Virus record (IMG/VR): IMGVR_UViG_3300001525_000092
Span: 64,001-128,000 of that record
Reading direction: 5' to 3' (one strand)
Source of the DNA: a virus
Lineage: Duplodnaviria > Caudoviricetes
Length of the DNA stretch: 64,000 nucleotides
Positions 821-55,183 of this stretch are shown here, in pieces. The translations under genes were made by a program, and so were the position numbers. Every line of letters starts with the position of its first letter. The stretch's first letter is position 1. Under the pieces are notes generated by a model that worked only from the letters and a program-made list of their open reading frames with translations, was not told the origin of the DNA and did not search any database.

Positions 821-849
821 AACCAAAATAGAAAGGAATATTGCATATA

Positions 850-883
850 AGAGGAAATTCGAAAGAGTTTCCTCTTTTTTTTT
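850..883 (+). terminator. Intrinsic terminator after SSB
   Basis: AGAGGAAAtTC-GAAA-GAgTTTCCTCT stem-loop followed by a long T run. Confidence 0.8.
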
Positions 884-2005: not shown

Positions 2006-2539
2006 TTGATAATCATGAAGAAAGTAACTAAAATTTCATTGACATGTGCAATAGTTGCATTTACCATCACATTCGTCGGAATGAACATCATCATTCGTTC
2101 TTGCAATGATAGCAACAAAGACAAGATTGAAGTAGTAGGTGACACTGTCTCATCTGAAGGAAAGGTGATGGAGTTTGAGTACCAGAATCACAAGTTCATC
2201 AATATAGTGAAGATGAATGATGACAAAGAAGAAAGCTTTGTAGTTCATGATCCTAACTGCAAGTGTATGACTAAGAAGCTCAACAATATCACTACTGTCA
2301 TCACTAACACTGACAATCATAACACTTATAAGTCTGATTCTATATCTAAAGCTAACTTTAGAGTGATCATAAGTAAGTTGAGTCAATTGTCAAGTGACAA
2401 TGCAATGATAGCAAAAGAAGTCAAGACACTTAGAACTGAAGTTGCTATGCTCAAGAAGATGAAGACAAATCCAGTCTGGAAGGTGCCAGTCAAAGCAACA
2501 AGTAAACCTACTAAGAAAGCACCTTCTAAGAAGAAGTAG
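2006..2539 (+). CDS. Membrane-anchored protein with C-terminal coiled coil (possible spanin-like lysis protein)
   Basis: N-terminal TM, heptad segment IAKEVKTLRTEVAMLKK, follows the lysozyme. Confidence 0.4.
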   Translation: MIIMKKVTKISLTCAIVAFTITFVGMNIIIRSCNDSNKDKIEVVGDTVSSEGKVMEFEYQNHKFINIVKMNDDKEESFVVHDPNCKCMTKKLNNITTVITNTDNHNTYKSDSISKANFRVIISKLSQLSSDNAMIAKEVKTLRTEVAMLKKMKTNPVWKVPVKATSKPTKKAPSKKK

Positions 2540-2542
2540 ATA

Positions 2543-2644
2543 GAATGCCGCCAGGAGTCGCCGGGCGGCGCCCGGCGGCCGCGAAATAGCTCGAGATATA
2601 AATTATATTAGGGCAACATTTTCAAGGCCGCCAGCGGCAAATTT
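2543..2644 (+). repeat. Dispersed GC-rich ~100-bp element, copy 1
   Basis: ATGCCGCCAGGAGTCGC..GGCGGCCGCGAAAT..TATAAATTATA..TTTCAAGGCCGCCAGCG.CAAATTT; four other copies in window. Confidence 0.95.
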
Positions 2645-2704
2645 AGACTTGTCTCTTGAACAGAGCCAAGCGATGTTCATTAACACTTGTTTATAAATTA
2701 GATT

Positions 2705-2732
2705 TTGAAATTTCTAAGCTTTGTTCTATATT
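2705..2732 (+). promoter_or_regulatory. Class A promoter TTGAAA-N16-TATATT
   Basis: Consensus match upstream of 2757 gene. Confidence 0.7.
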
Positions 2733-2756
2733 CTTTATGCAAAACATAAAGATTAT

Positions 2757-7724: not shown

Positions 7725-7734
7725 TAAAGATATG

Positions 7735-7763
7735 AACTGCACTTAAGTGCAGTTCTATTTTTT
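7735..7763 (+). terminator. Terminator after nrdD
   Basis: GAACTGCAC-TTAA-GTGCAGTTC palindrome plus T run. Confidence 0.75.
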
Positions 7764-9581: not shown

Positions 9582-9627
9582 AAATGAATAAAAAGTGCAT
9601 GAAAATTTGAACTTAGTTGTAATTAGT

Positions 9628-9655
9628 TTGAAATTTCATGCACTTGTTCTATATT
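9628..9655 (+). promoter_or_regulatory. Class A promoter
   Basis: TTGAAA-N16-TATATT. Confidence 0.7.
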
Positions 9656-9691
9656 ATTCATGTCAAACAATTAAAATACTTTATAATTATT

Positions 9692-10952: not shown

Positions 10953-11380
10953 TGATTTATCTTAGTACTGTGATTGGCCTCAGTCTTCTTCTGATGATTC
11001 CACTTTACTTCAATATTAGATCACTTAAGAAGACTAAGAAAGAAGTAGAAGACAGAAATGTTGCACTTCATATCATATACAGCATACCTTATCGACAGAA
11101 AGATGGGAAAGAGATGCTTATCTTCATGAAAGCAGATGGAAACAAGAAGAACGGAACAACAATAGGCATCAGATGCCGCTCAGATTGTTTCTGTGTTCAA
11201 GAAGAGTATGATGAGAGAGACATGAAGTTCTATGCTCAGCTTATCAAAGAAGGCTACTATAGAGTAGATGACAATTACAAGAATTGCAAAGATTGGTATC
11301 AATATTCAATTAATGGGAACATATATGATGGAACATGGAAAGAATGCATCAAGTCTAGGAAACGGAATTCCTCTAAATAA
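10940..11380 (+). CDS. Hypothetical protein with N-terminal TM
   Basis: Hydrophobic N-terminus. Confidence 0.6.
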   Translation: MEELMIYLSTVIGLSLLLMIPLYFNIRSLKKTKKEVEDRNVALHIIYSIPYRQKDGKEMLIFMKADGNKKNGTTIGIRCRSDCFCVQEEYDERDMKFYAQLIKEGYYRVDDNYKNCKDWYQYSINGNIYDGTWKECIKSRKRNSSK

Positions 11381-11726
11381 GTTCAATCTTGAGATAGTGT
11401 TGAAGGCTATCTTATGGTATGGGTCTGGTTGTCATGGACGCATAACATCCATATCATTCAATGTAGTCAAGAGCATATTTGAGATTGACAATGCAAGAGA
11501 TCTCCAGAAGCTATACAACATGCTAGACTTGAACTCAGAAGAGCTTGGTGTGTACAGTGTGTGCTTTGCTGACAATAATATAGAGATGGAGAACATGTCA
11601 GAAGCACCAGTTGCATTGCTGAATACATCGCGGTCACTTGCCATGCGTGCTATCGTGTACTCCCAAAAAGATGATCTTGATGACATATCAATAAGTGTGT
11701 CTGACTTCATGAATGACTTGCTTTGA
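11325..11726 (+). CDS. Hypothetical protein
   Basis: ORF in operon; start uncertain. Confidence 0.55.
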   Translation: MMEHGKNASSLGNGIPLNKFNLEIVLKAILWYGSGCHGRITSISFNVVKSIFEIDNARDLQKLYNMLDLNSEELGVYSVCFADNNIEMENMSEAPVALLNTSRSLAMRAIVYSQKDDLDDISISVSDFMNDLL

Positions 11727-11830
11727 AAAAATGCCGCTGGCGGCCTTGAAATTCTCACCCTAATATAATTTATATCTCAAGCTATTTCGCGGCCGCCAGC
11801 GTCACGCAGCGACCCCTAGCGGCATTCTAT
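11727..11830 (-). repeat. Dispersed GC-rich element, copy 2 (reverse)
   Basis: Reverse complement ATAGAATGCCGCTAGGGGTCGC..GGCGGCCGCGAAATAGCTTGAGATATAAATTATATTAGGG..TTTCAAGGCCGCCAGCGGCA. Confidence 0.95.
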
Positions 11831-11884
11831 GACTACTTCTTAGAAGTAACAATTAAAATATTTTAGAAAAAAGTTGAAAATTAT

Positions 11885-11912
11885 TTGAAATTATAAGAAA
11901 CATTACTATATT
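11885..11912 (+). promoter_or_regulatory. Class A promoter
   Basis: TTGAAA-N16-TATATT. Confidence 0.7.
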
Positions 11913-11956
11913 ATACACGTAAACAATAAAACATTAACAATTCAATTCTTATAATT

Positions 11957-12713: not shown

Positions 12714-12755
12714 ATCGCAAATTTAACATCTATATACAATTGTTAAATTTGCGAT
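12714..12755. terminator. Hairpin between convergent genes
   Basis: ATCGCAAATTTAACA..TGTTAAATTTGCGAT inverted repeat. Confidence 0.6.
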
Positions 12756-12844
12756 TTGGGCGTTTATTTTTCTCGTACCTTATAAATTATATACTTAAGG
12801 TATTTCGCGGCCGCCAACGGCGCCCAGCGACTCCTGGCGTCATC
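12746..12844 (-). repeat. Dispersed GC-rich element, copy 3 (reverse, diverged 3' arm)
   Basis: Reverse complement GATGACGCCAGGAGTCGCTGGGCGCCGTTGGCGGCCGCGAAAT..TATAATTTATA..CGCCCAAATCGCAAATTT. Confidence 0.9.
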
Positions 12845-13187
12845 TCATAGAACGTTTAGTCAATCGGTATTTGTCACCATCTTTTATGATGCGATAGAAA
12901 GTCCAGTTTGATGACTTCATCCATCCATAAGTTGATATGTCTTTCTTTGTCTCATAGCTTCTCATTGGACTGTACACCCATTGGACAGGATAGATAGCAA
13001 GAGTGTCTGCTATGCATACACTGTCTATGAATCTTCTGTCTACTATAGTGTCTAAGTCGTATTGCATTGTCTCATTGACTGTCTCTCTAGGACTAGAGCA
13101 GCCTATGAAGAAGAATGAGACTATCAATAGTATCATGATTATCCATGTGATGATAGTAGCTTGCATCTGTGAAAGTTCTTTCTTCAT
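12840..13187 (-). CDS. Putative lipoprotein
   Basis: Hydrophobic stretch ending FFFIG-C. Confidence 0.6.
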   Translation of the reverse strand: MKKELSQMQATIITWIIMILLIVSFFFIGCSSPRETVNETMQYDLDTIVDRRFIDSVCIADTLAIYPVQWVYSPMRSYETKKDISTYGWMKSSNWTFYRIIKDGDKYRLTKRSMR

Positions 13188-13857: not shown

Positions 13858-13888
13858 AAAAGAGAGTACTGAGTACTCTCTTTTTTTA
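13858..13888. terminator. Bidirectional terminator
   Basis: AAAAGAGAGTAC-TGA-GTACTCTCTTTTTTT between convergent genes. Confidence 0.8.
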
Positions 13889-18725: not shown

Positions 18726-18778
18726 ATAATGTAATATAGATTAATAGATAATTTTATTTCAAGAATAATTAAATTAAT

Positions 18779-18806
18779 TTGAAATTCTGAAACTTTGTTC
18801 TATCTT
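18779..18806 (+). promoter_or_regulatory. Class A promoter
   Basis: TTGAAA-N16-TATCTT; a divergent 18-bp-spaced copy at 18733-18762 precedes gp47. Confidence 0.65.
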
Positions 18807-18825
18807 TAATCTGAACAAAATAAAT

Positions 18826-19419
18826 ATGATTATGATGAACAGAAACTACAATGAAGCTCCAATGATGGATCAGAAAACATTTGATATTTGTGAAGGTTAT
18901 GACTTGAACAACACTTCTAAAGAAGTTCTTGACAACTTCATCAATGAGAAGACTATCATTTGGGTCACAGACATTTGCTTGATGAATGATGAAGGAATCA
19001 TGCCAACAGGCGAGAGATATGTGACAAGCGGAATTGGTCACAACTATATTGTTCCTTGCATAGTACAGAAGATCAAGAACACTTACTGCTTGAGAGATGT
19101 GTGGATGTATTGTGGAAAAGAAAAGTACACTGAATTGGTTGAAAAATATCCACATTATCAGTTTGAACATGGAATGGAAACCAAGACTTTTGAAAATGGA
19201 GGTGGATTCTTCTTTCTTGAAGATGATGTTCATGCAAGCACTACCTATGAGTACATCAACAAAATAAGATTCAATATAGAAAAAGAATATGAAAAGTTAG
19301 AGAAGACTACTTGGGTAAAAGATATTGTGCAAAAGACTACATTCTCTATAGAAGAAGCAAAGAAAGCTCTTAGTAAAGTACACAACATTCCAGTAGAAGA
19401 AATTGAAATCAAACTTTGA
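18826..19419 (+). CDS. Paralog-array protein 1
   Basis: Shares I.PC.I and C-terminal (S/T)..E..K.....I.I motifs with neighbours. Confidence 0.65.
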   Translation: MIMMNRNYNEAPMMDQKTFDICEGYDLNNTSKEVLDNFINEKTIIWVTDICLMNDEGIMPTGERYVTSGIGHNYIVPCIVQKIKNTYCLRDVWMYCGKEKYTELVEKYPHYQFEHGMETKTFENGGGFFFLEDDVHASTTYEYINKIRFNIEKEYEKLEKTTWVKDIVQKTTFSIEEAKKALSKVHNIPVEEIEIKL

Positions 19420-26439: not shown

Positions 26440-26522
26440 TGAAATATTTTGAAATAAATGAGATTGGTTCTATATTTAATACGTTAATTAAATGTAGAAC
26501 CAATTTAAGTATTATAAAGATT

Positions 26523-26882
26523 ATGGTAGATCGTTTGAATCAAGAGTTAGAATTAGATGACTTAGTACTTATCTGTCATCCTAAGACATCAGTCCTCCTT
26601 CGTTGCATTGTGAAGAAGATCAATGCAAAGACAGTCACAGTACATGCTCTTCCAGAGTCAGAAAAAGAGAATGAGACTTCTCAATATTGCCAACATGACA
26701 TGGTTGGTATTGGTGATCATAAATTTCATGGAAACTACTTCAGAATTAGTAAAGGTTTCAATAGACGTCCAGAAGAAGTAGTGAAGATTGGACATTATCG
26801 GACTATCCAAGACAACGGAAAAGACATCCATTACTCTAATGTTGAGATTGGTGATGAAGAACTTTGGCCAACCGACTTGTAA
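26523..26882 (+). CDS. Hypothetical SH3/KOW-like protein
   Basis: MVDRLNQELELDDLVL..RRPEEVVKI. Confidence 0.55.
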   Translation: MVDRLNQELELDDLVLICHPKTSVLLRCIVKKINAKTVTVHALPESEKENETSQYCQHDMVGIGDHKFHGNYFRISKGFNRRPEEVVKIGHYRTIQDNGKDIHYSNVEIGDEELWPTDL

Positions 26883-26896
26883 AAATCAATTTAATC

Positions 26897-27142
26897 ATGC
26901 TAAAAAGAAATAAGATTCCTATGAAGAAAGACATCAGTGGTTTTGATGTGAAGAAAGGTTATGTTGTGTTGTTAGCTACTACTGATAGCAACAACCTTCT
27001 TCATGCTAAAATAATAAAAGAGACAACCGCTTCTCTTATGTGTGAGATATTTGATGCTCCAGATGGCTATAGATGGCTTAATGGTAAAGTAGTTCGTCGC
27101 AAGCCGGAGCAAGTGATAGTGATAAGCCCATTTGACAACTAA
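26897..27142 (+). CDS. Hypothetical SH3/KOW-like protein
   Basis: KDISGFDVKKGYVVL..RKPEQVIVI. Confidence 0.55.
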   Translation: MLKRNKIPMKKDISGFDVKKGYVVLLATTDSNNLLHAKIIKETTASLMCEIFDAPDGYRWLNGKVVRRKPEQVIVISPFDN

Positions 27143-27160
27143 TTAAAATCACAATAGACT

Positions 27161-27826
27161 ATGAAGATTATATATGATGAGATGTATCCTGAAGAGTTCT
27201 TCAGATATGGAGGTGTAGTTCTTGTTGGTAGCTGGAACTTCAAAGTAGAGACTTATGGTCATTGGAAACAGACTACTGCGGCTCATGCATGGAACTATGA
27301 CTACATCAACAAGTATGGAGGCGATGCTTGGATTGGTGACATGCACTTCTCTTATGACAAAGAGAACAATGTCTTCAAGTACAAAGGATCTTTTCCTAAA
27401 GTAGAGACAAATGATCCGTATGGTGTTCCTAATGTTTGCTTCAGTCTAGTTGATGATCAAGATGCAAGATGGGAGAAATATGCTAAGCAACGCAAAGAAC
27501 GTGGATTTGATGATTCAGAATTGTGGAATCTTGATTGCTCAATTGCTAAGTTCATCCTTCCTCGTCTTGAGAGATACCAAGAAATCAAGTGCGCACACCC
27601 TGCTAACTTGACAGAAGAAGAGTGGACAAGACGAGTTGCATTGATGATATCAGCATTCAAGACTTACTTGTATGACATTGACTTGACTAATGATGAGAAA
27701 GTCATCAAGAAATTCTGTAAGCAAGGCATCATCAAGAAGAATGTAGATGATGCATTGAAACTCCATAAAGAATATCTTGAAGGAATGGAGTACTTTCATA
27801 AGTATTGGACTTGGTTAGGTGACTAA
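27161..27826 (+). CDS. Hypothetical phage protein
   Basis: Long ORF with genome-typical codon usage. Confidence 0.65.
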   Translation: MKIIYDEMYPEEFFRYGGVVLVGSWNFKVETYGHWKQTTAAHAWNYDYINKYGGDAWIGDMHFSYDKENNVFKYKGSFPKVETNDPYGVPNVCFSLVDDQDARWEKYAKQRKERGFDDSELWNLDCSIAKFILPRLERYQEIKCAHPANLTEEEWTRRVALMISAFKTYLYDIDLTNDEKVIKKFCKQGIIKKNVDDALKLHKEYLEGMEYFHKYWTWLGD

Positions 27827-27830
27827 CCCA

Positions 27831-27930
27831 GATGCCGCCAGAAGTCGCTGGGCGCCGCTGGCGGCCGCGAAATGACTCAGACTATAAATTATATATCTGG
27901 ACAAATTTTAAGGCCGCCAGCGTCAAATTT
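27831..27930 (+). repeat. Dispersed GC-rich element, copy 4
   Basis: GATGCCGCCAGAAGTCGCTGGGCGCCGCTGGCGGCCGCGAAAT..TATAAATTATA..AAGGCCGCCAGCGTCAAATTT. Confidence 0.95.
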
Positions 27931-27961
27931 AGCTTATTCATTAAACTTTATTAACATTAAT

Positions 27962-29047
27962 ATGAATTATGATGACATAATCATAAATATCATTTATTCT
28001 AAATCTAGACCTTCACAAAAATTCCTTAAGAACAAAATAAAATATTCTAATGTAGTAAATTATCTATTAAATAGATTTGATTATGTTGAAAATGTAAGAG
28101 AATCTTTAGATAGAATAAAATATCATATTGAATATAGACCTTGTTGTAAAAAATGTGGAAATATTGTGAAATACATTGGGTTGCGCAATGGATATCCTAA
28201 GTATAGAGATTTTTGTTCTTGCAAATGTTCAATGAATTCAGAACAAACAAAAGAAAATCTAAGGAAATCCATACAAGATAAATATGGAGTAGATAATGTA
28301 TTTCAAGATACTAAGATCAAAGAAAGAATAAAGAATACTTGGATAAACAAATATGGTGTAGATAATCCTAGAAAATCAGAATCGATAATTGCTAAAATTA
28401 ACAACACTTCAATTCGTAGATATGGCACATCATATCCTACGTCTAGTACTATAGTTCAAGATAACATAAAAAAATCTATTTTAGCTAAATATGGGTGTAA
28501 GTATTATTTTCTAAATAATGAATTTAAAGAAAAATCAAAACTTACTTGTGTCTGTAAATATGGTGTAGACAATTACATGAAAAGTGAAAAAGCGCGGATA
28601 TACATGCATGAAAAGATGTCTACAATTGAAGTACAACAAAAAAGAATAAATACTTGCATAAAACATAATACTTTCAATACTTCTAAAGTAGAAGAAGAAC
28701 TTCACTCATATATAAAAGAAAAATTTCCTTCAGTAAAGAGACAATATAGAGACAAAGAAAGATATCCATACAACTGTGACTTCTATATACCTGAGTTCGA
28801 TTTATTCTTGGAATTGCAAGGGAATTGGACACATGGAAAGCATGCATTTGATTCTACTTCTAAAGAAGATCAAGTCATATTAGAGGAATGGAAAGAGAAA
28901 AGCAAAGAACACCCTTACTATAGCAACGCAATAAAGACTTGGACTATATATGATGTGAATAAAAGAAACAAAGCAAAAGAAAACAACTTAAATTTTAAAG
29001 AAGTTTGGTCTCTAGATGAAGGAAAAGCATTCATAAATAATTTATAA
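27962..29047 (+). CDS. Putative homing endonuclease: Zn finger, KYGVDN repeats and PD-(D/E)xK-like nuclease
   Basis: CKKCG..FCSCKC, five (K/R)YG repeats, CDFYIP..LELQG.WTH; AT-rich. Confidence 0.75.
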   Translation: MNYDDIIINIIYSKSRPSQKFLKNKIKYSNVVNYLLNRFDYVENVRESLDRIKYHIEYRPCCKKCGNIVKYIGLRNGYPKYRDFCSCKCSMNSEQTKENLRKSIQDKYGVDNVFQDTKIKERIKNTWINKYGVDNPRKSESIIAKINNTSIRRYGTSYPTSSTIVQDNIKKSILAKYGCKYYFLNNEFKEKSKLTCVCKYGVDNYMKSEKARIYMHEKMSTIEVQQKRINTCIKHNTFNTSKVEEELHSYIKEKFPSVKRQYRDKERYPYNCDFYIPEFDLFLELQGNWTHGKHAFDSTSKEDQVILEEWKEKSKEHPYYSNAIKTWTIYDVNKRNKAKENNLNFKEVWSLDEGKAFINNL

Positions 29048-31719: not shown

Positions 31720-34700
31720 TTATTTTTTTTTCCTTGTTAGGTCGATTGTCTTCCGTGTGTTTCTATAAGGATTATTGTTGTCATCTGTATTTGGTTGTAT
31801 TACCCATGTCTCTGTATATTTTGTGTTTGATGTAGCAATCTCACTTCTTACTTTCACTGTATGATCACATACATATCCATTAGGATATGTCTTGTCTGAC
31901 TTATCAACTTCAGTAATTGTGCTTGCTATGTTGTCAAAGTACATAGTCTGTTCTTTTCCTGTCTCTTTGTTCTTGATAGTATAGTCGACTGAATTAGAAT
32001 CTACATAGTTACCATTCAAGTAAGTAATCTTGTAACAGTATACCTTGATGTTCTTCTGGGAAGTGTCACCATAGTTGAATGTAATGCTAGATGAACTAGA
32101 CATCTTCACTCCATCTATATATACATCAAACACATAGTTAGTAGTAGTCTTGCTAGCATATCTTATGTCTATGTCGATGGACTTCTTCAAGTTCTTGTAT
32201 GTGATAGTCACAGTACCATTCACTATGTTAGAAGAGTTGTTCTTAGACACTTCTTTGTTCAACTTATATGTGTTGCTAGACTTAGTATAGTTAGTAGATA
32301 TAGAGTTGTCTGACATAGTCACAGCATAGTCATTAGAAGATTTCCATTCTGCTTTCTCTAGCAATTTCTTAGTAGCAGCATCATCTTCAACCCATACGGC
32401 AACACCATTATCATTAAGTTGTGCTTTCCATTGCTGATCTACTTCTTTGTAGCTTGCATTGATGATGAATGACAAGTACTTGTCATCTGTGACATTGCCG
32501 TCTTTCTTAAGTATCACTTCATCTTCTCCATAAGCAGCATATCCATATATAGAAGAGCAAGATGTCTCTAGCTTGTAATCGTATACCTTTTCTGTTGGCT
32601 TTGGATAGCCTGGCTCTGGATTTGGTGTAGGATCTGGATCGACTGGATCAGGCTTGACTGGATTGTCAGTATTGTCTATCTTGACTAATCTCTCATTCCA
32701 GAACTCAGGAACACTATGAGATGTCATCACTTCTCTTATGTTGATGTGACGTATAGTAGCATCATAATATGCTATGTCAGTTTTCCATTCATAGTAACTG
32801 AATGCACAAGGCATAGTAGCTTCATTGAAGTTGGTGATCAATGGAACATATGTCTGTCCTCCTATTGTCACTTCTGTAGGATCCTGTGTGATGTATGCAT
32901 ATGTGAATGACAAGTCAGAGTAAGTGATGTTGTCTTCATTCAAGTATGTTATCTTGCTTGGATTAACAGAAGACACCTTCATTCTCAAGTCAGTGTTGAG
33001 CTTGCCGTACTCTTCTATATATGATAGAATATAAGAGCTTATCACATTCTGTCCAATAGGAACTTCTTTTGCTATATATGACTTAGCTTCATCAAGAGTA
33101 GAGTCGATCCACTTGTACTCTCCTGTAGAAGGATAGTATGTCAGTTTCTTTGAGACGCCATCTTCCGTCTTTGTGATGAATGCATCAAACTCTTCATCTG
33201 TACTGAAGTCATCTTTTGTCTTGTATATAGTAGTTGGCCAGTATGACATGACTGTGTATCTCTCATAGTCATTGCTGTCTTCTACTTTTCTGTATCTCAC
33301 ATGAGTGTAAGTGTACACATTCTCATTAGCATAAGTGAAGGCATCAGTGTCTAAGTTTCCAATCACAAATCCGTAAGCAGGAGTGAAGAATCCTTGTACT
33401 TTAGACTTGGAGCACTTGTCTATCATAGGACAGTCTTTTGCGCTACATAAGTCACAACCATCGCATGACCAGTACTCAGTGTAAGAAGATGCATACATGT
33501 AAGCAGAGACATAAGTGTATGTCTTAGTCTCTATAGGTGCTTGATAGCTCAACACATCAACATAGCTTACTTCTATCGGGTTGCCTAGCACAAGTCTTGT
33601 TGTTCTTTCTTCATCATATGCATTTCCTAGGTGACCTTCTGCTAAAGTGTTCTCTTTGTCGGTCAAGTCTGTACTAAGCTCAAGATACCAAGAATGATCA
33701 TTGAGAACATCAGTAGCATTCTTGAAGTTCAATACATAAGCAGTTCCTGTCTTCTGTACTCTTATAGGATTCCCATAGTCATCTTTGTCAGTAGTGTCTT
33801 CCATGATAGGAACATTCTTGCCATCTTCTATAGTGTACAATGGAATATTCTTAGAAAGCTCACATATATAAGAAAGTCCATAGCTATTCCACTCATCTAT
33901 AGTAGGATGTATTCTTGATAGAGTATTTGCTACATAGTCTTCTGACACTCCTTGCCAGATGTTGCCTGTGTTGTAATAGTAAGACATTGCTTGCCATGTT
34001 CCTGGATAGTTCTCATTCAGATTGGCAAGCACATTGTACATTGCTAAGTAACTGTCTATATTCTCTTTTCTTCTTGTAGTAAGCAATGTAGCATCACCAT
34101 GCCATACAGTGTCTTTGTCGTTAGATATGTTGTTCTGTGTCAAGAATACAGATGCATTCAAGTAAGACACATTCCTTGACTCATTCTGTACATAATATCT
34201 TGTTTGCTTCTTCTTTCTCAACTTGAACTTCACATTGCTGAGCAATGCACTAGTTCCAGAAGGAATCTTTCCACTTTCTAGTTCTTCTCTTTCTTCTAAT
34301 ATTCCTATAGGATATATAGTAGTAGTATAAGTGTTGTAGTTGTCTATAGCATATGTAGTCCATGATGGTCTAGAAGTGATTATCTCACCTTTCACACTAG
34401 TATACCCATTCAGTTCTATAGTGTCAAAGTCTATCTGCATCTTGTCCATCTTAGTGAGATGGTGTATGCTGTCTTTGTCCACCATAGATGTAGTACCTAG
34501 ATTGATGTTTGTCTCACTAGTACCAATGTGGAGTACATTCTTGTTCTCTTGATCATATGCAGATCCTATGTATGCATTGTATATGACACCATAAGAAAGT
34601 GCAGGATTGAACTGTACTTTGTCTGCTACTAATATGTTAGAGCGATTCCAGAAGCTAGCATTTCTGACAGTGACTTCTTTCAAGTCAACCATAGGATACT

Positions 34701-37662
34701 GATTTCCTACATACCCGTTAGGATTGTACTCACTATTAGGAATGTACTCTTTAGGGAAGTTAGTCATAGATATGACTTTAGGAATGATGCCATAAGTAGT
34801 ATAATGCTCTAAGTTACCTTTTATCAGACCAACTTTAGGAAAAGACTTAGTAGTGTCATCTTCTGCATAGTAAGTACCATAGTAGCTATATGGTTCTATG
34901 TAAGTAGTAGTGTATGAATCGATTGTGAATCTTCTAGTATTGGTGCCATTCAAGACATAAGACACATGACCATCATCATGTCCTATGTTGTCATCAAACT
35001 CAATAGCTAAGTTCATTGAGTTGAAGTACTGCTCATCTCCTTCATAAGACATTCCAATTCCTTTAGTCACATCAATGCCCAAAGTAGGATTATAATAGTC
35101 CGCATTGTGATTCAATATGACAGGGTATACCAATGAAGAATTGTAAGAGATGGTGTTGTTCTTCAATAGTTGCAACACAGGATCAAACAACAATTGAGTA
35201 TGCTCATAGTCATCTGGACTGAATGAGTACTTAGCATAGTACTTTATGTATTGCTCTAGATTGCAGATATAGTTGAAGTCAAGAGCTACTTCATTGTTGT
35301 ACTTTGGATTCTTTATATAGTCAAAAGCATAGTATGTTGAGTTAGTAGAATAATCTGTCTTCTCTTCGCAAGTCCAGAATGATGTGACAGTTCCTACTCC
35401 TCCTATGATGTCTTGTATAGTACCTGATCTTCTAGCATATCTATATATGTATGAGTAGGTGCTATCATTTCCTATAGACCAGTCTTCATACTTTCCATAA
35501 GAATATTGCCTGTTGTTGTATGCATTCCAAATTTCTTCTTCTGTTCCTATTACTAGCTCACTGTCTTTATGGATGCTACTACCACTATAATATGCATATT
35601 GTATATAAGTAGAATCTTTCTCTAGCTCAGTAGAAGAAATGTTCATGATGATAGCGTCTTTGAAGTAAGTGAAAGTCTCAGTTTCTCTTATAGACTTCAG
35701 ATACTCATCAGAAGGTACCCATGCTTCTATAGAGAATGTGTTGTGTGCACCTACATTAGCATTAGTGTCTATGTAGTTAGAACTGAATGTTTTCTTCTCA
35801 AAGTCAGAAGAACTCAAGCTCTTTATGACATCTAGTCCAATGCCTGACAACACATTCTTATATGGATTGAACTCATGCAAGTCAGTAGAAGCTACTATCA
35901 TCAAGCTAGACTGATCAGCTACAATTCCTTTAGCATAGTTATTAGTTGCTAGTCCATTGATCACCCAGTATCCATTAGAGTTGATGTAAGGCATTATGAA
36001 TGACTCTTTCCAGTCTATAGAAAGAATGATAGTGTCATCTAAAGAACTATAGTTGACATTCATGTCATACAACACTGTTCTTTCTATCTCTGAGTTAGCA
36101 TATATGTACTGATTAGGTTCTGTTCCGTCCAGATGAACTAACTTCTTCAAGAAAGATACATTGTCCGTGACATTGCTTATAGTGTCTTTTCCTAGTTCAT
36201 TGATGTACTCATACTGCACTGGAATAGATCCAGTCATGTTATATATCAATGACTCATCATTAGAGTTGCAGTTGTACTTGAACTCGTAGTTAGTAGGGAA
36301 GTACATCACATACAAGTTAGTCTCATCAGGAACAGAAGACATAGAAAGAGAAGAGCGCCATGCTTTATATGTCAGCTCACTTACTATTCTTTCTTTTATC
36401 TTTATGTTAGAATCCGACTTGTACATCACTTGATTGTAGATTTCTAGCAATCTAGGATATAGCTGCTTAGTGTCTGAGACAAAGTACTCTAGCTTACCAT
36501 TGGTATGTTCCAATGTGTCACCTACTATGATGTCAATGTCTGCATCTATGTTCTGATTTCCGTCTGCGTCTGGTGCCATCTGTCCTGTTCCGTCACTAGA
36601 GAAAGATGATGATGCACTCATCTTTTTCCATTTGTCAGAGATGAAGTCAGAAGGAATGCTCCAGTTAGCATTGTCTGGAGTGTCATAGTCAACAGGAACA
36701 CTATAGCACTTAGAAACTATTCCTGCTATCTGATTGATTCCATTTCCGTCAATGATGTCACTCATCACATTAGATATGACTGATGAAGGAGAGTTGATGT
36801 TAGAAGAATCAGCATACTTTGCTATCAGCTCATCTATTCTTGATTCTTCTAATAAGTCTCTTGCATCACCTAATCCTATGTAATACTCATTGTTGGCACC
36901 TTCTCCAAGATTCTCTTTTACTTTGTATACATCAAGAACCCATTCATGATTTCTAAGACTATCATCAACTTTGTCATAGTTCTTATGTAGATGAATCAAT
37001 GCAAGCTTCTCATGTGCATATCTAGAACTTGGACCATTCTCGTCAGGATCATCTGATTGCATCAAGTTCTCTTCATTGACTATGAATATTCTGAATCCTT
37101 CTATGAACTCGCCACTATCAGAAACCTCTTCACACACATACTCATTGTCATACTCTCCATACACTCCACTCTCATGATGTCCAACAACTTTATATATGAA
37201 TGAGTTGTCTGTCTTGAAGAATGTTGCACTCTCTTTGTGCCAATAGTCAACATTGTTTATTCTGTCTACATCTGACAGCATGATGGAATCTTCATCAAAA
37301 CCATCTTCTAGTCCTCTTATAGAATGATCTATGTTGTCCACAACAAACTTTGTGTTTGCTTCTTCTGATGAGAGTTCTTTGAGAGATCCATCATCTTGTA
37401 GCAACTTAAGATATCCTCCTACTCTATTCTCAGTAGGGTACAGAACTACTTGGACTAACAAGTCATTCTCATTGAAGTCACCTGTATAGTTAGGAAACAA
37501 GTCTTGGATAGAAAAAGAACTGAATCCAATAGAGTCACCTTTAGCAGCATTGCGCTGACCAAGATTAGCTAATGATTGCTTCAAGTAAGCATCTGTATAA
37601 CTAGTCAGATAGTTTTTCTTGCTTATCCCATTTTGGAATGCATTGACATTAATTATTGGCAT
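31720..37662 (-). CDS. 1980-aa putative virion/tail protein with PD-rich linker and beta-rich C-terminal domains
   Basis: Size, Tyr/Thr/Ser richness, PVKPDPVDPDPTPNPEP linker. Confidence 0.6.
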   Translation of the reverse strand: MPIINVNAFQNGISKKNYLTSYTDAYLKQSLANLGQRNAAKGDSIGFSSFSIQDLFPNYTGDFNENDLLVQVVLYPTENRVGGYLKLLQDDGSLKELSSEEANTKFVVDNIDHSIRGLEDGFDEDSIMLSDVDRINNVDYWHKESATFFKTDNSFIYKVVGHHESGVYGEYDNEYVCEEVSDSGEFIEGFRIFIVNEENLMQSDDPDENGPSSRYAHEKLALIHLHKNYDKVDDSLRNHEWVLDVYKVKENLGEGANNEYYIGLGDARDLLEESRIDELIAKYADSSNINSPSSVISNVMSDIIDGNGINQIAGIVSKCYSVPVDYDTPDNANWSIPSDFISDKWKKMSASSSFSSDGTGQMAPDADGNQNIDADIDIIVGDTLEHTNGKLEYFVSDTKQLYPRLLEIYNQVMYKSDSNIKIKERIVSELTYKAWRSSLSMSSVPDETNLYVMYFPTNYEFKYNCNSNDESLIYNMTGSIPVQYEYINELGKDTISNVTDNVSFLKKLVHLDGTEPNQYIYANSEIERTVLYDMNVNYSSLDDTIILSIDWKESFIMPYINSNGYWVINGLATNNYAKGIVADQSSLMIVASTDLHEFNPYKNVLSGIGLDVIKSLSSSDFEKKTFSSNYIDTNANVGAHNTFSIEAWVPSDEYLKSIRETETFTYFKDAIIMNISSTELEKDSTYIQYAYYSGSSIHKDSELVIGTEEEIWNAYNNRQYSYGKYEDWSIGNDSTYSYIYRYARRSGTIQDIIGGVGTVTSFWTCEEKTDYSTNSTYYAFDYIKNPKYNNEVALDFNYICNLEQYIKYYAKYSFSPDDYEHTQLLFDPVLQLLKNNTISYNSSLVYPVILNHNADYYNPTLGIDVTKGIGMSYEGDEQYFNSMNLAIEFDDNIGHDDGHVSYVLNGTNTRRFTIDSYTTTYIEPYSYYGTYYAEDDTTKSFPKVGLIKGNLEHYTTYGIIPKVISMTNFPKEYIPNSEYNPNGYVGNQYPMVDLKEVTVRNASFWNRSNILVADKVQFNPALSYGVIYNAYIGSAYDQENKNVLHIGTSETNINLGTTSMVDKDSIHHLTKMDKMQIDFDTIELNGYTSVKGEIITSRPSWTTYAIDNYNTYTTTIYPIGILEEREELESGKIPSGTSALLSNVKFKLRKKKQTRYYVQNESRNVSYLNASVFLTQNNISNDKDTVWHGDATLLTTRRKENIDSYLAMYNVLANLNENYPGTWQAMSYYYNTGNIWQGVSEDYVANTLSRIHPTIDEWNSYGLSYICELSKNIPLYTIEDGKNVPIMEDTTDKDDYGNPIRVQKTGTAYVLNFKNATDVLNDHSWYLELSTDLTDKENTLAEGHLGNAYDEERTTRLVLGNPIEVSYVDVLSYQAPIETKTYTYVSAYMYASSYTEYWSCDGCDLCSAKDCPMIDKCSKSKVQGFFTPAYGFVIGNLDTDAFTYANENVYTYTHVRYRKVEDSNDYERYTVMSYWPTTIYKTKDDFSTDEEFDAFITKTEDGVSKKLTYYPSTGEYKWIDSTLDEAKSYIAKEVPIGQNVISSYILSYIEEYGKLNTDLRMKVSSVNPSKITYLNEDNITYSDLSFTYAYITQDPTEVTIGGQTYVPLITNFNEATMPCAFSYYEWKTDIAYYDATIRHINIREVMTSHSVPEFWNERLVKIDNTDNPVKPDPVDPDPTPNPEPGYPKPTEKVYDYKLETSCSSIYGYAAYGEDEVILKKDGNVTDDKYLSFIINASYKEVDQQWKAQLNDNGVAVWVEDDAATKKLLEKAEWKSSNDYAVTMSDNSISTNYTKSSNTYKLNKEVSKNNSSNIVNGTVTITYKNLKKSIDIDIRYASKTTTNYVFDVYIDGVKMSSSSSITFNYGDTSQKNIKVYCYKITYLNGNYVDSNSVDYTIKNKETGKEQTMYFDNIASTITEVDKSDKTYPNGYVCDHTVKVRSEIATSNTKYTETWVIQPNTDDNNNPYRNTRKTIDLTRKKK

Positions 37663-37663
37663 G

Positions 37664-40600
37664 TTATCTCAAATCAAATATGTACTTCAGTCTCCATAGT
37701 TTCTTTTCCTTAGACATGTTGAGCTTGATAGGAACAGTATCATAAGAGACATCATAGTAATTATATAAAAATAGGTACTCATCATCATTCAATTCACTCA
37801 TCTTGATTAGTTTCTTGAATATATCTACTGTCACACTTTCTTCTTCTAGTTCTTTCATTCTATCATAGTCTACATAAGAACTATGTATATATGAAAGTTG
37901 AGTAGGAAGAAGAACAAACTTATTTTGATTGAAGTTCTTGTACTCTAATGAAGTGAAGGAATCATATATAAGATGACCATCCAATTCAATCACTTTCTTC
38001 TTGTCATACTTCTCTTCATATATGTTGATAGGAACATATATGTCTACATATCCTGTTCTGTTATATATTGGTGAGTCACTTATAGAGTTGAGTGTTCCTT
38101 TTCTTATCAAGACATCATCTGTCTCTTTGTACTTTAGATTCCACTGATTAGATATAGAAGAAACAGGCAATAGAATAGGAACAATGTCTCCGAAGTATCT
38201 TGTTAGCTTGTACTTGAACAAAGCATCATCATGTCTGATGACAGATATTTCTGTTGACTTGTCATTCATGTCATTGCTTGCTTTAGTAGATGTATATAGC
38301 GTATCTAGATTGAATGTATAAGGAATTACTCTAGCATCTATGCTTACTAAAGACTTGAATATGTCTCTATTTAGCATAGGCATCAATTCTCTGAGTATTT
38401 TCTTGAAGTACAATGGATCTTTCTCAATGTCTGTTCCATTCACATACTTGAACATCTTTATTATTCTCTCAAAGTTCTTGTTGCTTAGTGCATATAAGTC
38501 AAATGATCCTATTGTGTTGTCAAGAGCTAAGTCTATCATGTAATATCCATATACTTTTCCATCCACTAGCTTTGTGCTCAACAATGTGTTCTTCAATCCA
38601 AGATAGTTGTCATCTTGTCTCAATGAAGTCTTCTTGACATTCATGCTAGAGTACAAGAAGTCATTGAGAACTTTTCCAGTAGCTACTTCAAATCTAGACT
38701 TAATCCATTTTCTCTCATCATCTGGTTCTACTAAAGCAGACAATGAAGATAATTCTTCATCCGTCAGTTCTATCATTGTGTTAGAATCATACTGTGTGTG
38801 TCGCAAGTACTTTGTTGTGACATTGTTGTTGTCATCTACCACTTGCACTTCTTTGAATCCTTCTTCTTTATATATAGCATATAGTTCTGTATCAGAAAGT
38901 TCTTGCTCATATATCTTGTCAAACAACGGAACTAAGCAATTCTCATTCTCTTCTATAATGATGTCATGCATGTCATCAATCTCTGGATTGATGTATCTTG
39001 ACTTTATTCCTTTATAGTGATCTCTTTCCCAGTTAGACTGTGTCTGGACTTCATACAAGTACAAGTCTTTGTATGACTTAGTGTTTCCGTAGTCTTCTAA
39101 GTCAATAAGCTTTCCTGGTCCATATATCTGATCATTGAGCTTGAAGCATTCTATGTCAAAGCACAACTCAACATATCTCACTCCATCATCGAACTCTATC
39201 TTCCAAACATCATAAGTCTCATCATAGTTCTCATCTTTCATAGATACATAGTCAATGATCTCAAAGAACTCTTTGAATGACTTAGGATATTCTGTAGCAG
39301 ATATAGGTGTATAGCAATCCTTGACAGACACCTTGCCGTCATCTAACACTAAGTTCTTTTCTCTTATATAAACCATAGATGCCCATCTCTTTGCTAAGTC
39401 ACTAGGCTTCTTTCTCTTCTGGTTGCAACACAATTCTGTGTACCACCAATACAGATGCTGCTTGTTCAAGAACTGCGCTTTGAACTTTCTAGTATGTCTA
39501 AGAAGATCAAGACAATCTATTTCGTTGTCATTCTTGTACTTCTCTAGCACAGCTTGCATGTTGTACTGATCTATCCATACAACATTAGTCACTTTTTCTT
39601 TCTCACTTTCTCTTATAATATATTCTTCATCTATATAGTTGTTCTTCTTGAATGTGTCTGTAGCATATATAGTCTTTCCATTGAACATGACAGGATAGAA
39701 TCCAAAAGTATCTTGAGCAGAAAGATATGACTTCAGTGCAGATGTCACTTTATCATGAAGTGTATGCGCAGTGTATGTGATTTGCCATTCTTTAGTATTA
39801 GAATGTCTCATCTTCTTGTAGTCATACTTTCCATTAGTGTTGTTGAAGTAAGTGGCAAGAGAAGAATCAATGTCTGTAGTGATATATTCTTGTATGTGAT
39901 AGTTCTTCAAGAAATAACTATTTAAGTTATATATAGAGCAGTAATAAGAAAGAGAAGTAGAGTTGATAGGATTAGGTATCATGACATAGCTAAGCTCAGG
40001 ATAGTAAATGTTAGCTTTTCCTGCATTCACTATTCCTGTCTTGTCGCTGCTAGAGCATCCTAACAACTCATATATAGGATCATAGTACTTCTTAGAATCA
40101 TACACATCTTCTATCACTCTATAGAAAGCTTGAGTTCCTTCTATAGATCCTGTCCAGTTTATTTCACCATATAGTCCTTCCCAATCAGGCCTCTCTCCAT
40201 ATCCACACACATAAGTCATAGGCTGGCCAGACGAAGAGAGAGCATAAGTCGTCTCTGCATTGTCATAGTCAGGAGTGCCATCATTCTTAAGCAAGTATGT
40301 TTGCTTCATCAATACATAAGTGTTGGCAGTGTAAGCATAGTTCTTTGGAATGTTCATGTACCCATAAGAGTCGCATGCTATTCCTGGTATGTGGAAGTCT
40401 ATGATTTCATTTCCTTGTATGATGTAGCTAGAAGAAATCTTTTCTTTTCCTTCTTCATCTAATGACATCAATGGACATATTTGCTTGTATATAGAAGCAG
40501 ATTCTAGAACAATGTCAGGATATGACAACTCTATTCCTTTCTCTTCACACCAACTAGATATAGTCGAGTACTTCATCTGTCTTCTTATGTTGTCTATGTA

Positions 40601-42953: not shown

Positions 42954-43026
42954 GGATTGATAGCTTAGATGGTCTGAGCGCTGGACTGAAAATCCAGAGG
43001 TCGTGGATCGTTACCACGTCAATCCA
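42954..43026 (+). tRNA. tRNA-Phe(GAA)
   Basis: Cloverleaf, CTGGA-CT GAA AA-TCCAG; atypical T-loop. Confidence 0.9.
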
Positions 43027-43065
43027 CTAAGAAAATTGTTCTTTGAAATAATGAATACAATGAAT

Positions 43066-43139
43066 GTTCTGTTAACTCAGTTGGATAGAGTACGATACTT
43101 TTAATATCGGAGTCATGAGTTCAAGTCTCATACAGAACA
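43066..43139 (+). tRNA. tRNA-Lys(TTT)
   Basis: CGATA-CT TTT AA-TATCG. Confidence 0.92.
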
Positions 43140-43454: not shown

Positions 43455-43539
43455 GGAAGTTTGGCAGAGTGGACTATTGCACTGGTCTTGAAAACCAGAG
43501 GTCAGAGATGATCCATAGGTTCGAATCCTATAGCTTCCG
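43455..43539 (+). tRNA. tRNA-Ser(TGA)
   Basis: Long variable arm, CT TGA AA. Confidence 0.92.
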
Positions 43540-52467: not shown

Positions 52468-52890
52468 ATGAACTTCAATGACATGGCTATATACATAAAG
52501 AAAGGAATCAAAGGAAACTTCTTCACTAAGCTAGTGCAACAAAATAGTGGATATAGTAGCAAGAGCTTCTTTCTTGTGATAGTGACTATAATAGGAACAT
52601 TGCTTCTTGCTGTCCCTATATTTGTTCTAGGAATAGAAGCTTGGTTCAACCACACTATAGCTACTGACTTGAATGGTGTAGCAGCATACATAGCAGCGGT
52701 AGCAGCTGTCTTCACTTCTGTAGGTCTCACCAAAGTGTGGTCTGAGAAGTATGAGCACCGATTGCCTGGCCCAGATGGAAAGATTGGCACTGATGATGAC
52801 ATCATAGTGAATGTCACAGATGAAGAATATGACAAGATATTAGCAATGATGAAAGAGAAAGAAAATGCTAATGATACAAGTTTCTCTTAA
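52468..52890 (+). CDS. Holin-like two-TM protein
   Basis: Two TM helices, charged C-terminus, class B-like motif upstream. Confidence 0.55.
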   Translation: MNFNDMAIYIKKGIKGNFFTKLVQQNSGYSSKSFFLVIVTIIGTLLLAVPIFVLGIEAWFNHTIATDLNGVAAYIAAVAAVFTSVGLTKVWSEKYEHRLPGPDGKIGTDDDIIVNVTDEEYDKILAMMKEKENANDTSFS

Positions 52891-52990
52891 GATGCCGCCA
52901 GGAGTCGCTGGGCGCCGCTGGCGGCCGCGAAATGGCTTAGACTATAAATTATATTAGGGCAACATTTTCAAGGCCGCCAGCGTCAAATTT
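52891..52990 (+). repeat. Dispersed GC-rich element, copy 5
   Basis: GATGCCGCCAGGAGTCGCTGGGCGCCGCTGGCGGCCGCGAAAT..TATAAATTATATTAGGGCAACATTTTCAAGGCCGCCAGCGTCAAATTT. Confidence 0.95.
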
Positions 52991-53023
52991 CACATTTGTT
53001 AACATTTCATCATATCAATTATA

Positions 53024-55183
53024 TCAAGAGAATCTCTTGAATCTAGATTCCATCATCTGGTGTGGTGTCAGCGGCATGTCATAGAGTGATCCTTCATCAT
53101 TGCTGTATTGAGATGGCATAGTACTCATACTACTCAACATATTGTTCATACTGCTTACATTATATATGTTGTTGTCATATATAGAAGAAGTAGAAGAAGT
53201 AGAAGGCATGCTTCTGTTCATGAATGGATTTGCATTGTTGATAGGAGAAGGTACAGTTGAACTTGGAACTCTCACTGTCTCTGACACAGACTTCTTCTCT
53301 ATCACATTGCCTAATGCATCTCTTAGCAGCTTGAGCATCTCTATCTTCTTCTCATCTTTCTCTGCATCTTCTATCTCTTGCCATCTTCCTGTTGCTCTCA
53401 TCTCTATTTCCCATTCTTCTATGAAGTCTTTGTACTTAGTGGTGTTCTTCAACAATGGCAACTGGACAAAAGTCATTATCAAGTCATCATGTCCATATGC
53501 AGCAGCATAGCTTCCATTTCCATTCTTATCTTCAAAGTTCTCTAATTCTGACACTGTTAGCAAGTCAGTCAAGATCACATCAAACTTCTCTATCATCATC
53601 TTAAGGAGTGCACAAGCAGATATCTTAGTGGCATGACTAAGCCTTATCCCTGGTATTGTGCTACTGTTCTTGAATCCATTCAAGTTAGCAATAGAGTCTT
53701 CTTGGCTTCCTTTCTTGTATCTTGCTAAGCAACTCAAGTCAAATTCTCTGGCAGGATTCACTTGCCATCTCCATGCTGCTTCTGGCATGTACTCTTCTTC
53801 ATTCAAGTTCTTCAGATAATTGTAGAACAATGCACCGTATGTGTTCCACTCAACAGACACTAGTGTCTTGAATGGATTGAAGAACTGACCAAACAGTACC
53901 CAGAACTCTAGTGCAGCTTGCTCAAGATCTACTGTGTTACAATGCCAGTATCCTACTTGCTCAAACTTCTCTTTTCCTACTACTTCTATTATGTTGAATG
54001 TAGTGAAGTCATTTCCTCCACCTTCGGCTAAGTCAACTAATATGATGAACCAACCTTCTTTTAGATGATGCAACTCATATCCTTTCTTGAATCTAAGGTC
54101 ATTCTTATGCAGACTGAAGTACCAACTGTCATCCTCAGGTACATCAAACAGATAAGTCAAGTCTCTGATCTTTCCTAAAGTCTCTCTTGAGACAAGACAC
54201 TTGTCTGATGCAGAGAATTGTGTTCCGTATTGATAGTAGAATGCTTCTTCTGATCCTAGCACACCTACCATCTCCGCTTTCCATTTCTCATCTCTCTTCT
54301 TCCAACACTTATTGTCTTTGTCCCACTGAGGCACTTGCCACCAGTCTATGGTCATAGGAGCATACATTGACTTTCCAGTCTCAGCAGCATGCCATAGCTT
54401 ATAGAACAAGTTGAATCCATTCTGCGTTGACATGATGCATATCTGGGCTGAAGTATCTGCTGACACTACAGGTATGATGTTGTTGTAGAATAGCTCAACA
54501 TCATTAGGAGGACACCATGCAAACTCATCAAGTATCAAGAAGTTTATAGTCTTACCAAGACCTGCTGTAGGAGAGAATGGCTCTGTTGCAATAGTTGAGT
54601 TGTTGTCAAATGATATCTCGGACTGATTCCACTTGTACACACCTAGTTTCAAGTGATAAGGCAAGTACAAGAACATGTCTTTTATCTTCTTGAGCAAGTC
54701 TCTTCCTGCAGGACCTGACTTTGAAAGTATTAGGCCTGAGCGGTCATTCTTGAAGAGTATAGACCAAAGACAGAAGATAGCAGTTGTGACAGACTTTCCT
54801 GCCTGGCGGCATGCTCTAAGTATTGAGAATCGATTCTTCTGACAATGCTTGATATATTCTTCTTGGTAGTCACGAAGCACTGCTGCTTGGAGACCGTCAG
54901 GATTCATGATGTAACACTTAGATGCAAAGTATATAGGATCTTCCATGCAGTGCAAGTAGTCTTCTATCTCTTCTTCACTTCTCGCAAAGACTAGATTGGG
55001 CTTGATGAGCATAGTGTTCTTTCCTATGAAAGGATTGGCCTTCAGTGGCAATCCTTTCTTCATAGCTTCTACTGCTTTGTTTAAGGTGATAGTAGTCCAG
55101 ACTATAGCTTCTGCTTCTTTTCCGCCTCTCTCATACTTTATAGGATCAAAGCTCTCATATATGTCTGTGTTGTCTTTCTTCAT
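53024..55183 (-). CDS. terL: Terminase large subunit (gp17-like)
   Basis: LRDYQ, RQAGKS Walker A, ILDEFA Walker B, STQNG, DLAEG.G.D, HDDL. Confidence 0.95.
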   Translation of the reverse strand: MKKDNTDIYESFDPIKYERGGKEAEAIVWTTITLNKAVEAMKKGLPLKANPFIGKNTMLIKPNLVFARSEEEIEDYLHCMEDPIYFASKCYIMNPDGLQAAVLRDYQEEYIKHCQKNRFSILRACRQAGKSVTTAIFCLWSILFKNDRSGLILSKSGPAGRDLLKKIKDMFLYLPYHLKLGVYKWNQSEISFDNNSTIATEPFSPTAGLGKTINFLILDEFAWCPPNDVELFYNNIIPVVSADTSAQICIMSTQNGFNLFYKLWHAAETGKSMYAPMTIDWWQVPQWDKDNKCWKKRDEKWKAEMVGVLGSEEAFYYQYGTQFSASDKCLVSRETLGKIRDLTYLFDVPEDDSWYFSLHKNDLRFKKGYELHHLKEGWFIILVDLAEGGGNDFTTFNIIEVVGKEKFEQVGYWHCNTVDLEQAALEFWVLFGQFFNPFKTLVSVEWNTYGALFYNYLKNLNEEEYMPEAAWRWQVNPAREFDLSCLARYKKGSQEDSIANLNGFKNSSTIPGIRLSHATKISACALLKMMIEKFDVILTDLLTVSELENFEDKNGNGSYAAAYGHDDLIMTFVQLPLLKNTTKYKDFIEEWEIEMRATGRWQEIEDAEKDEKKIEMLKLLRDALGNVIEKKSVSETVRVPSSTVPSPINNANPFMNRSMPSTSSTSSIYDNNIYNVSSMNNMLSSMSTMPSQYSNDEGSLYDMPLTPHQMMESRFKRFS

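Follow-up and report, generated by a model that had tools for sequence, protein, structure and literature searches.

A dispersed two-hairpin element at conserved gene ends evolves in concert in a clade of T4-superfamily jumbo phages

Long imperfect intergenic hairpins with internal loops define and stabilise mRNA 3' ends at the RNase III sites of phage T7 and under the 'hairpin rule' of giant viruses; those of giant viruses do not form a family of repeated sequences. Signals at gene ends that are repeated and co-evolve are already known from bacteria, as REP elements, and in a simpler form from T4-type phages, as PeSL stem-loops. The PeSL stem-loops are terminators repeated at gene ends, their activity has been proven with reporters and their copies recombine (PMC2839356, PMC4122927). 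REPs measure ~35 nt, are preceded by GTAG and are linked to RAYT Y1 transposases (PMC3333891), and one REP element was found to be both a terminator and an mRNA stabiliser (bioRxiv 10.64898/2026.03.23.713779).

We analysed a window of 64,000 nucleotides, bases 64001-128000 of a 148,148-bp IMG/VR virus record that is judged ~52% complete, and found that a GC-rich unit of ~105 bases recurs at its gene ends. The element probably works like PeSL and REP, and it is a member of neither family. As with PeSL, a conserved sequence is repeated in the intergenic spacers of a T4-superfamily phage and starts at the stop codon of the preceding gene; it is common within a genome and varies from one phage lineage to another, and some copies are followed by a promoter motif, TTTGAAATTT..TTCTATATTAT. 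The PeSL stem-loop is a short, simple one made of a G-run, a loop and a C-run, whereas here the unit comprises two hairpins in ~105 nt and includes an imperfect palindrome of 68 nt whose apex is conserved. The early promoter-SD-start layout of PeSL is not found either: about a third of the copies in the window lineage lie between convergent genes, and the promoter motif stands beside only 8 of the 49 copies identified, hence the element is not a composite promoter-terminator. Finally, PeSL copies cluster in hyperplastic regions, whereas the present copies are found next to core genes (those for TerL, topoisomerase and RtcB) and where genes converge, and their positions are kept between diverged genomes.

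Like the element, REP and BIME sequences are imperfect, GC-rich palindromes outside genes, present in many copies at 3' ends and convergent junctions and species-specific in sequence; the element differs in that it is three times longer, viral and without a Y1 transposase/RAYT. GTAG precedes only a few copies. A MITE is likewise short, non-coding, dispersed in both orientations and structured at its ends, but here the search for a target-site duplication and a partner transposase (Y1 or TnpB) found neither, and most sites are shared by descent. The likeness to a Rho-independent terminator lies in a GC-rich stem at a gene end followed by a T-rich tract, as in many of the relatives' copies (counts below), and in the canonical terminator that can hold the same spacer in relatives. 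The stem-loop of the element is, however, much longer and has an internal loop, an extra 5' hairpin precedes it, the unit is repeated and co-evolves, and most copies of the window lineage carry only a TTT tract. With the T7 RNase III sites and the giant-virus hairpins the element has in common the long imperfect intergenic hairpin, but no phage-encoded RNase III was found here. What is added to the known systems is a larger two-hairpin unit, anchored on the stop codon, at positions that are stable across an uncultured clade of ~290-kb phages, with stems that have been replaced in concert.

Five copies were located in the window with nhmmer. Repeat-finding recovered the same five (families D4, D19 and I1-I5), and their five-way alignment has a mean column identity of 73%, in agreement with the places and strands given in a preliminary description of this DNA. 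The number five given there is correct for the window; the record as a whole holds 12 copies and two sibling contigs hold six more. The unit starts a few bases earlier than was first described, at a stop-like triplet (TAAGATG, TAGAATG or TGAGATG), and several copies extend ~20 nt further 3'. The copies in the window and the parts of the focal copy are as follows.

2537..2539, + strand: TAG stop of the upstream ORF, read from the sequence
2541..2646, + strand: copy 1, the focal copy (nhmmer, record 66541-66646; alignments A1 and A3), 1 nt past the stop of the co-oriented ORF 2006-2539
2551..2564, + strand: small 5' hairpin CCAG-N6-CNGG (helix 1, 88.9% of cells paired)
2570..2587, + strand: 5' arm (B) of the long hairpin
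2597..2607, + strand: apex palindrome TATAA-A-TTATA, retained in about half of the relatives' copies
2618..2638, + strand: 3' arm (C) of the long hairpin, then CAAATTT
11725..11829, - strand: copy 2, antisense to both flanking + strand genes, with its 3' end abutting the stop of ORF 11268-11726 and a T6 run at the end on its own strand
12744..12845, - strand: copy 3, at a convergent junction; begins at the stop of ORF 12840-13187 (- strand); C arm replaced
27830..27933, + strand: copy 4, 3 nt past the stop of ORF 27161-27826; site also occupied in G003 and G004
52888..52993, + strand: copy 5, in a convergent spacer; ORF 52468-52890 stops at its TAA, and 30 nt past its 3' end comes the TerL stop

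The 14-mer GGCGGCCGCGAAAT occurs exactly five times, where 0.01 occurrences are expected. The segment GCGGCCGCGAAAT, described as invariant, is indeed so among the five copies of the window, but across the record it is kept in 9 of the 12. A census with an iterated nhmmer profile yielded 49 copies in five sequences: 12 in the record, three on each of the sibling contigs G001 and G002 (18 for the lineage), and 15 and 16 in two complete relatives, G003 (282,933 bp) and G004 (294,491 bp), respectively. G001 and G002 are 42-44-kb contigs from another metagenome and have no DNA collinear with the record; we counted them with the window lineage on the assumption that they are pieces of an identical or very close phage. 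Positions 43494-43632 of G001 match positions 1-139 of G002 in reverse (97% over 140 nt), which makes it probable that the contigs are neighbouring parts of a single genome.

The elements stand out by composition. The genome has ~36% GC, and no 40-mer of the record with 70% GC or more falls outside a copy; all GCGGCCGC sites (11/11) likewise lie in copies. The ratio of observed to expected CpG is 1.36 inside the elements and 0.26 outside, with GpC at 1.0, which bears out the earlier remark that a CpG-dense element resides in a CpG-poor genome. There is a warning in this, as a stretch rich in GC and CpG within an AT-rich, CpG-depleted genome resembles a recent invader yet may be an old resident. 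Making up 0.8% of the sequence, the elements account for ~8% of its CpGs and for every one of the 11 NotI sites.

At the 5' edge, a stop-like triplet at the offset seen in the focal copy is conserved in most copies of both lineages, and a fold of about -5.5 kcal/mol is predicted for the 5' module in each of the three groups. The long B:C hairpin has z-scores of -3.0 to -4.0 in four of the five window copies. The long B:C palindrome that had been proposed for the element therefore holds for these four and fails for copy 3 (12746 on the - strand in the preliminary description), which has lost the C arm (z = 0.01), has an arm duplex of only -11.3 kcal/mol and forms no B:C hairpin. An alternative stem is present in this copy:

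12716..12753, - strand: alternative hairpin on the 3' side of copy 3, with a perfect stem of 13 bp; likewise in copies g1_12215 and g2_15738

Altogether the C arm is absent from three lineage copies. Two copies are near-perfect palindromes of 80-90 bp, two variant copies carry compensatory GCG/CGC and CATG/CATG changes that extend the palindrome, and the loop halves of copy 5 derive from two subtypes, so that this copy is a mosaic. RNAalifold over the 18 copies gave a poor consensus structure, and covariation within the lineage is too weak to decide because the 18 copies are too alike.

Relatives of the phage were found through an alignment of homologues of the large terminase; a search with the single TerL protein found none.

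53024..55183, - strand: large terminase (TerL) gene, the query for finding relatives

TerL homologues that are 75-80% identical lie on contigs of 283-299 kb, several of them in IMG/VR. A covariance model built from the 18 copies produced diverged matches in G003 and G004, whose TerL is ~75% identical to that of the window; these two genomes are close to each other and are not independent samples. In the relatives' copies, a stop-like triplet is followed by a small hairpin, CCAGG-N6-CCTGG, and by a long hairpin with an AT-rich apex, and the 3' arm is usually followed by a T-run. The 5' arm of their long hairpin reads TCACACAGGGAGCGGAAAA, the apex is TATAA-A/T-TTATA in about half of the copies and the non-palindromic GTATATTCTATCAG in about half, and the 5' half is much more conserved than the 3' arm. 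Across lineages, the apex palindrome is the best conserved part. The arms differ at several positions between lineages and are complementary within each: cognate arm duplexes average -28.8 kcal/mol in the window lineage and -18.6 in the relatives, whereas the mean for cross-lineage chimeras is -9.6. Conservation thus extends beyond the copies first described, in the form of homologues with lineage-specific, complementary stems.

With models tuned to this close clade, no match was seen near TerL in relatives whose TerL is at most 62% identical, nor in a 376-kb relative (model R1). The 41-54-nt spacer of L185/L187 at TerL was considered as an empty site and rejected: it is not empty, the 5' half of the hairpin lying inside the coding end of the convergent gene. 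The phage encodes a terminase, a portal protein, NrdD, a DNA polymerase and an SbcC-like protein, a set that identifies it as a distant member of the T4 superfamily, and its nearest isolates are jumbo phages of Tenacibaculum, Sphingomonas and Chryseobacterium at ~30-34% identity. Most relatives have a TerL of ~930 aa with an intein (PF14890), e.g. G003 195940-198735 (homologues P0003, P0006, P0010 and following); the TerL of the window has 719 aa and is without intein.

We compared the sites between genomes using gene calls from simple longest ORFs and orthology from best BLASTP matches, both of which are approximate. Eleven of the 18 lineage copies lie in the same orientation at orthologous gene ends in G003 or G004, and in the reverse comparison 11 of 13 G003 copies that could be tested are matched in the window lineage, while the median protein identity between the genomes is ~60%. 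Among the shared sites are the ends of the genes for a topoisomerase II subunit (88% identical protein), a 615-aa protein and a helicase-like protein of 1215 aa, and the TerL junction. Four or five sites are occupied only in the window lineage, which allows for a degree of turnover, and rearranged neighbours were seen at copies 12744 and g1_26406. The proposal that the element is MITE-like or recently spread does not agree with this distribution, in which most copies occupy orthologous gene ends in the same orientation between genomes as diverged as these.

Orthologous copies are 38-48% identical across lineages, whereas the best paralogue within the lineage is 72-95% identical, demonstrating that the copies evolve in concert; between G003 and G004, orthologous copies are 77-94% identical. 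Beyond the core, some flanks are common to copies, GTAGTCATAGAATGCC at two of them and CAAATTTCACATTTGTTAACA at two. The mosaic copy 52888 and the shared flanks are what recombination between copies would leave, and gene conversion is probably the homogenising process. The closest sampled relative (TerL 80%) has the relatives' stem type, indicating that the GC-rich stem is derived in the window lineage. The element provides a natural example of concerted evolution of a dispersed, putatively regulatory element in a virus.

All 49 copies are intergenic. In about three quarters of them the 5' edge lies -8 to +25 nt from the stop of a co-oriented gene, the orientation relative to the upstream gene is biased ~3:1, and about a fifth of the sites are antisense. 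Copies occupy 6/23 convergent, 10/188 tandem and 1/22 divergent junctions in the window lineage, and 5/21, 8/227 and 1/21, respectively, in G003. This corresponds to a ~five-fold enrichment at convergent junctions, which is equally expected of a harmless selfish insert. At four sites occupied only in the window lineage, the spacer of G003 or G004 holds a classical short GC hairpin with a T-run, suggesting that element and ordinary terminator are functionally equivalent at these sites. A T-run of at least four within 12 nt past the hairpin follows 9/15 copies in G003 and 9/16 in G004, compared with a background of 13%. The lineage has such runs at 4/18 copies, two of them antisense to their neighbours, and most of its copies end in CAAATTT.

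Mismatches in the stems were counted on the sense strand. The ratio of G:U to A:C-type mismatches is 37:15 in G003 and 45:14 in G004, an excess that fits selection on the RNA of the sense strand; the lineage count, 23 G:U to 40 A:C, is uninformative because one shared C.A mismatch dominates it. One conserved site lies in a divergent promoter region beside the helicase-like gene, where a terminator is unexpected, and the near-invariant apex and strongly conserved 5' half are not needed by a plain terminator. Ordinary, non-repeated hairpins with T-runs are present at window positions 849-876, 7734-7755 and 13858-13884 (two of them bidirectional), indicating that the phage also uses canonical terminators.

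On balance, and with modest confidence, we think it probable that the element is a REP/PeSL-like RNA hairpin at gene ends, a terminator or 3'-end stabiliser, that is homogenised by gene conversion. It would represent the window lineage's form of a cis-acting gene-end module found in a clade of ~280-300-kb T4-superfamily jumbo phages. The element would be transcribed as the tail of the upstream mRNA, beginning at the stop codon or a few bases from it, and the RNA would present in order the small hairpin, the long GC-clamped imperfect hairpin with its AT-rich apex and, often, a T-rich tract. We infer from the sequence that the action is at the RNA level, the long hairpin stopping transcription, protecting the 3' end of the upstream mRNA, or both. 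More speculatively, the small 5' hairpin might act as a spacer between the terminator and the terminating ribosome, holding the two apart. The module would have stayed at fixed gene ends over a long time while recombination or gene conversion between copies kept those of one genome alike, and in the window lineage a new GC- and CpG-rich GCTGGCGGCCGCG stem would have replaced the ancestral CACAGGGAGCGG form at all sites. If so, the element could serve as a marker of transcription-unit boundaries for annotating these genomes.

Several sequences adjoin the element:

2652..2680, + strand: second conserved motif, a small hairpin CTCT-TGAAC-AGAG followed by ..GATGTTCAT, 6 nt past the element
2704..2734, + strand: promoter-like motif TTTGAAATTT-N-TTCTATATT (repeat family D8, sigma-70-like scan), upstream of the next gene
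27872..29047, + strand: DUF7487 / PHROG 3339 'homing endonuclease' gene, between copy 4 and a gene of 88 aa, which in relatives comes immediately after the element

The TGAAC-loop motif is found 3' of the element at several sites, with the loop kept and the stem differing between lineages. Its counterpart in the relatives consists of 39-bp tandem arrays that abut the 3' end of the element. Such an array lies after the topoisomerase gene in G003 (247685-247927, L264:7685-7927; 6.3 copies, 99% identity) and another at positions 2-150 of G004 (4 copies), and the motif was also seen at 34871-34936 of G002. The arrays could be iteron-like or could form a repeat-peptide ORF, 39 nt being 13 codons. 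The promoter-like motif, in the form TTTGAAATTT-N12-14-TTCTATATTAT, is enriched upstream of genes and occurs in 14-15 of 85 such regions (e.g. 2704-2756, 9616-9679, 11873-11925, 18778-18830 and 58753-58794), and a second enriched motif, TATTTTTAA(C/T)TAAAT, may be another promoter class. A T4-like late promoter at the apex was considered and rejected, as TATAAATA is not enriched upstream of genes (4/85 regions). The listed ATG of the DUF7487 gene at 27872 is inside the element, and the true start is therefore probably further downstream.

The most direct alternative to a gene-end RNA hairpin is a selfish, non-autonomous MITE- or REP-like element that colonises harmless gene ends, brings its own stop codon and has no phage function. 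Lineage paralogues of up to 95% identity, the shared flanks GTAGTCATAGAATGCC and CAAATTTCACATTTGTTAACA, the four or five lineage-only sites, the presence of both orientations and of truncated or mosaic copies, and a stop-like triplet at the 5' edge even where it is unused would all be accounted for, and enrichment at convergent junctions is seen for many bacterial repeats. We nevertheless regard this as unlikely. Sites are shared in the same orientation (11/18 and 11/13) at a median protein identity of 60%, and ordinary terminators replace the element in relatives. A Y1 transposase/RAYT (PF01797) is absent from G000-G004, two complete genomes included, and TnpB was not found, the complete relatives included. 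At four lineage-specific sites compared with relatives, no terminal inverted repeat with a target-site duplication was seen, so the earlier statement that no transposase and no target-site duplication are evident stands, and no copy turned up in any bacterial genome or unrelated virus. A related suggestion, that the element is a landing pad or passenger of DUF7487 homing-endonuclease-like genes whose cutting and homing spread gene and variant together, draws on three of the lineage's seven DUF7487 genes that directly flank a copy, on one of the seven in G004 that does so at an orthologous site, and on copy 27830, where comparison with relatives places the inserted gene precisely between element and following gene. 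G003, however, lacks DUF7487 genes altogether and still carries 15 copies, 10 of the 14 genes lie 1.4-8.7 kb from any copy, the arrangement of gene and element varies between sites, and the four adjacencies compare with ~1.6 expected by chance in our own rough estimate; we find this explanation very improbable.

The element could also act as DNA, its GC-clamped palindrome with the TATAA-N-TTATA centre being bound as duplex or cruciform by a phage protein of replication, recombination, packaging or genome organisation. Concerted evolution would then reflect co-evolution with the binding protein, and a coordinated change of the stem throughout the genome is what a change in the specificity of a trans-acting factor should produce. 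The superior conservation of the apex palindrome, the two near-perfect palindromes of 80-90 bp, the conserved sites that are antisense, or divergent beside the helicase-like gene, and the iteron-like 39-bp arrays abutting the element in relatives point the same way. A symmetric site, on the other hand, needs neither the ~3:1 orientation bias nor the anchoring on stop codons, and the excess of G:U over A:C mismatches in the relatives, their T-run tails and the non-palindromic apex GTATATTCTATCAG in about half of their copies speak against it; no candidate binding protein was identified. On these grounds a purely DNA-level site appears to us quite unlikely. Least credible, together with the homing scenario, is the two-state fold put forward in the preliminary description, an RNA switch or attenuator in which pairing of segment A with B prevents B:C and the ribosome at the stop, or a ligand, decides between them. 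Segments A (GCCGCCAG) and B (CTGGCGGC) can pair, at 87.5% of cells, and A lies within reach of a ribosome at the stop codon. The A:B duplex at -15.9 kcal/mol, however, barely beats a shuffled A (-11.4) and compares with -28.3 for B:C; in the homologous elements of the relatives it is at background (-7 to -8 versus -5.5 to -6). Covariation on A:B does not rise above shuffles, with a single double change seen, and two copies are without segment A. Pairing between the 5' and 3' ends is likewise inconsistent among copies, and the polymorphism for it agrees in only 6 of 11 copies (alignment A3).

A broader version of the cis-acting reading, to which we assign a low probability, is that the element is the cis-site of a phage-specific trans-acting system, be it a factor for termination or 3'-end processing or a protein that binds DNA or cruciforms, or else a self-propagating 'terminator' spread by gene conversion. 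Were a trans-acting factor involved, the compensated, genome-wide switch of the stem would record a change in the specificity of that factor, and such a partner, if it exists, would open up the study of how transcripts are ended or processed in jumbo phages. A self-propagating 'terminator' would overwrite ordinary terminators while keeping their function. Either would explain the conserved apex and 5' half, the built-in stop and the 39-bp arrays.

Searches for described families gave no counterpart. With Rfam, only tRNAs reached gathering thresholds, and under relaxed settings the best matches of two copies had E-values of at least 0.5, to unrelated snoRNA and miRNA models; the element thus matches no Rfam family. 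It had no blastn match among isolated phage genomes, a tight exact pattern was found among viral contigs only on the two sibling contigs, and in metagenome and in bacterial and archaeal genome contigs the exact pattern gave chance matches only. The characterisation of the element as a dispersed, structured, extragenic palindromic repeat of REP-like appearance is a fair one, as a resemblance that comes without a match in Rfam, phages, bacteria or metagenomes. A broad pattern, CTGGCGGCC..GGCCGCCAG, was tried on viral contigs and set aside; among the matches listed, most were GC-rich phages hit by chance.

Other features of these genomes were noted in passing. The DUF7487 family has seven members in the window lineage, seven in G004 and none in G003; besides the gene beside copy 4, members lie at 35934-37082, 62544-63620 and 4-822 of the record, at 26507-27583 and 32638-33846 of G001 and at 33762-34793 of G002. 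Two adjacent giant ORFs on the - strand of the window, 31720-37662 and 37664-42499 (1980 and 1611 aa), matched nothing in PHROG or Pfam. The window also carries a cluster of 23 tRNA genes on the + strand (42954-50301), with structured non-coding spacers between some of them.
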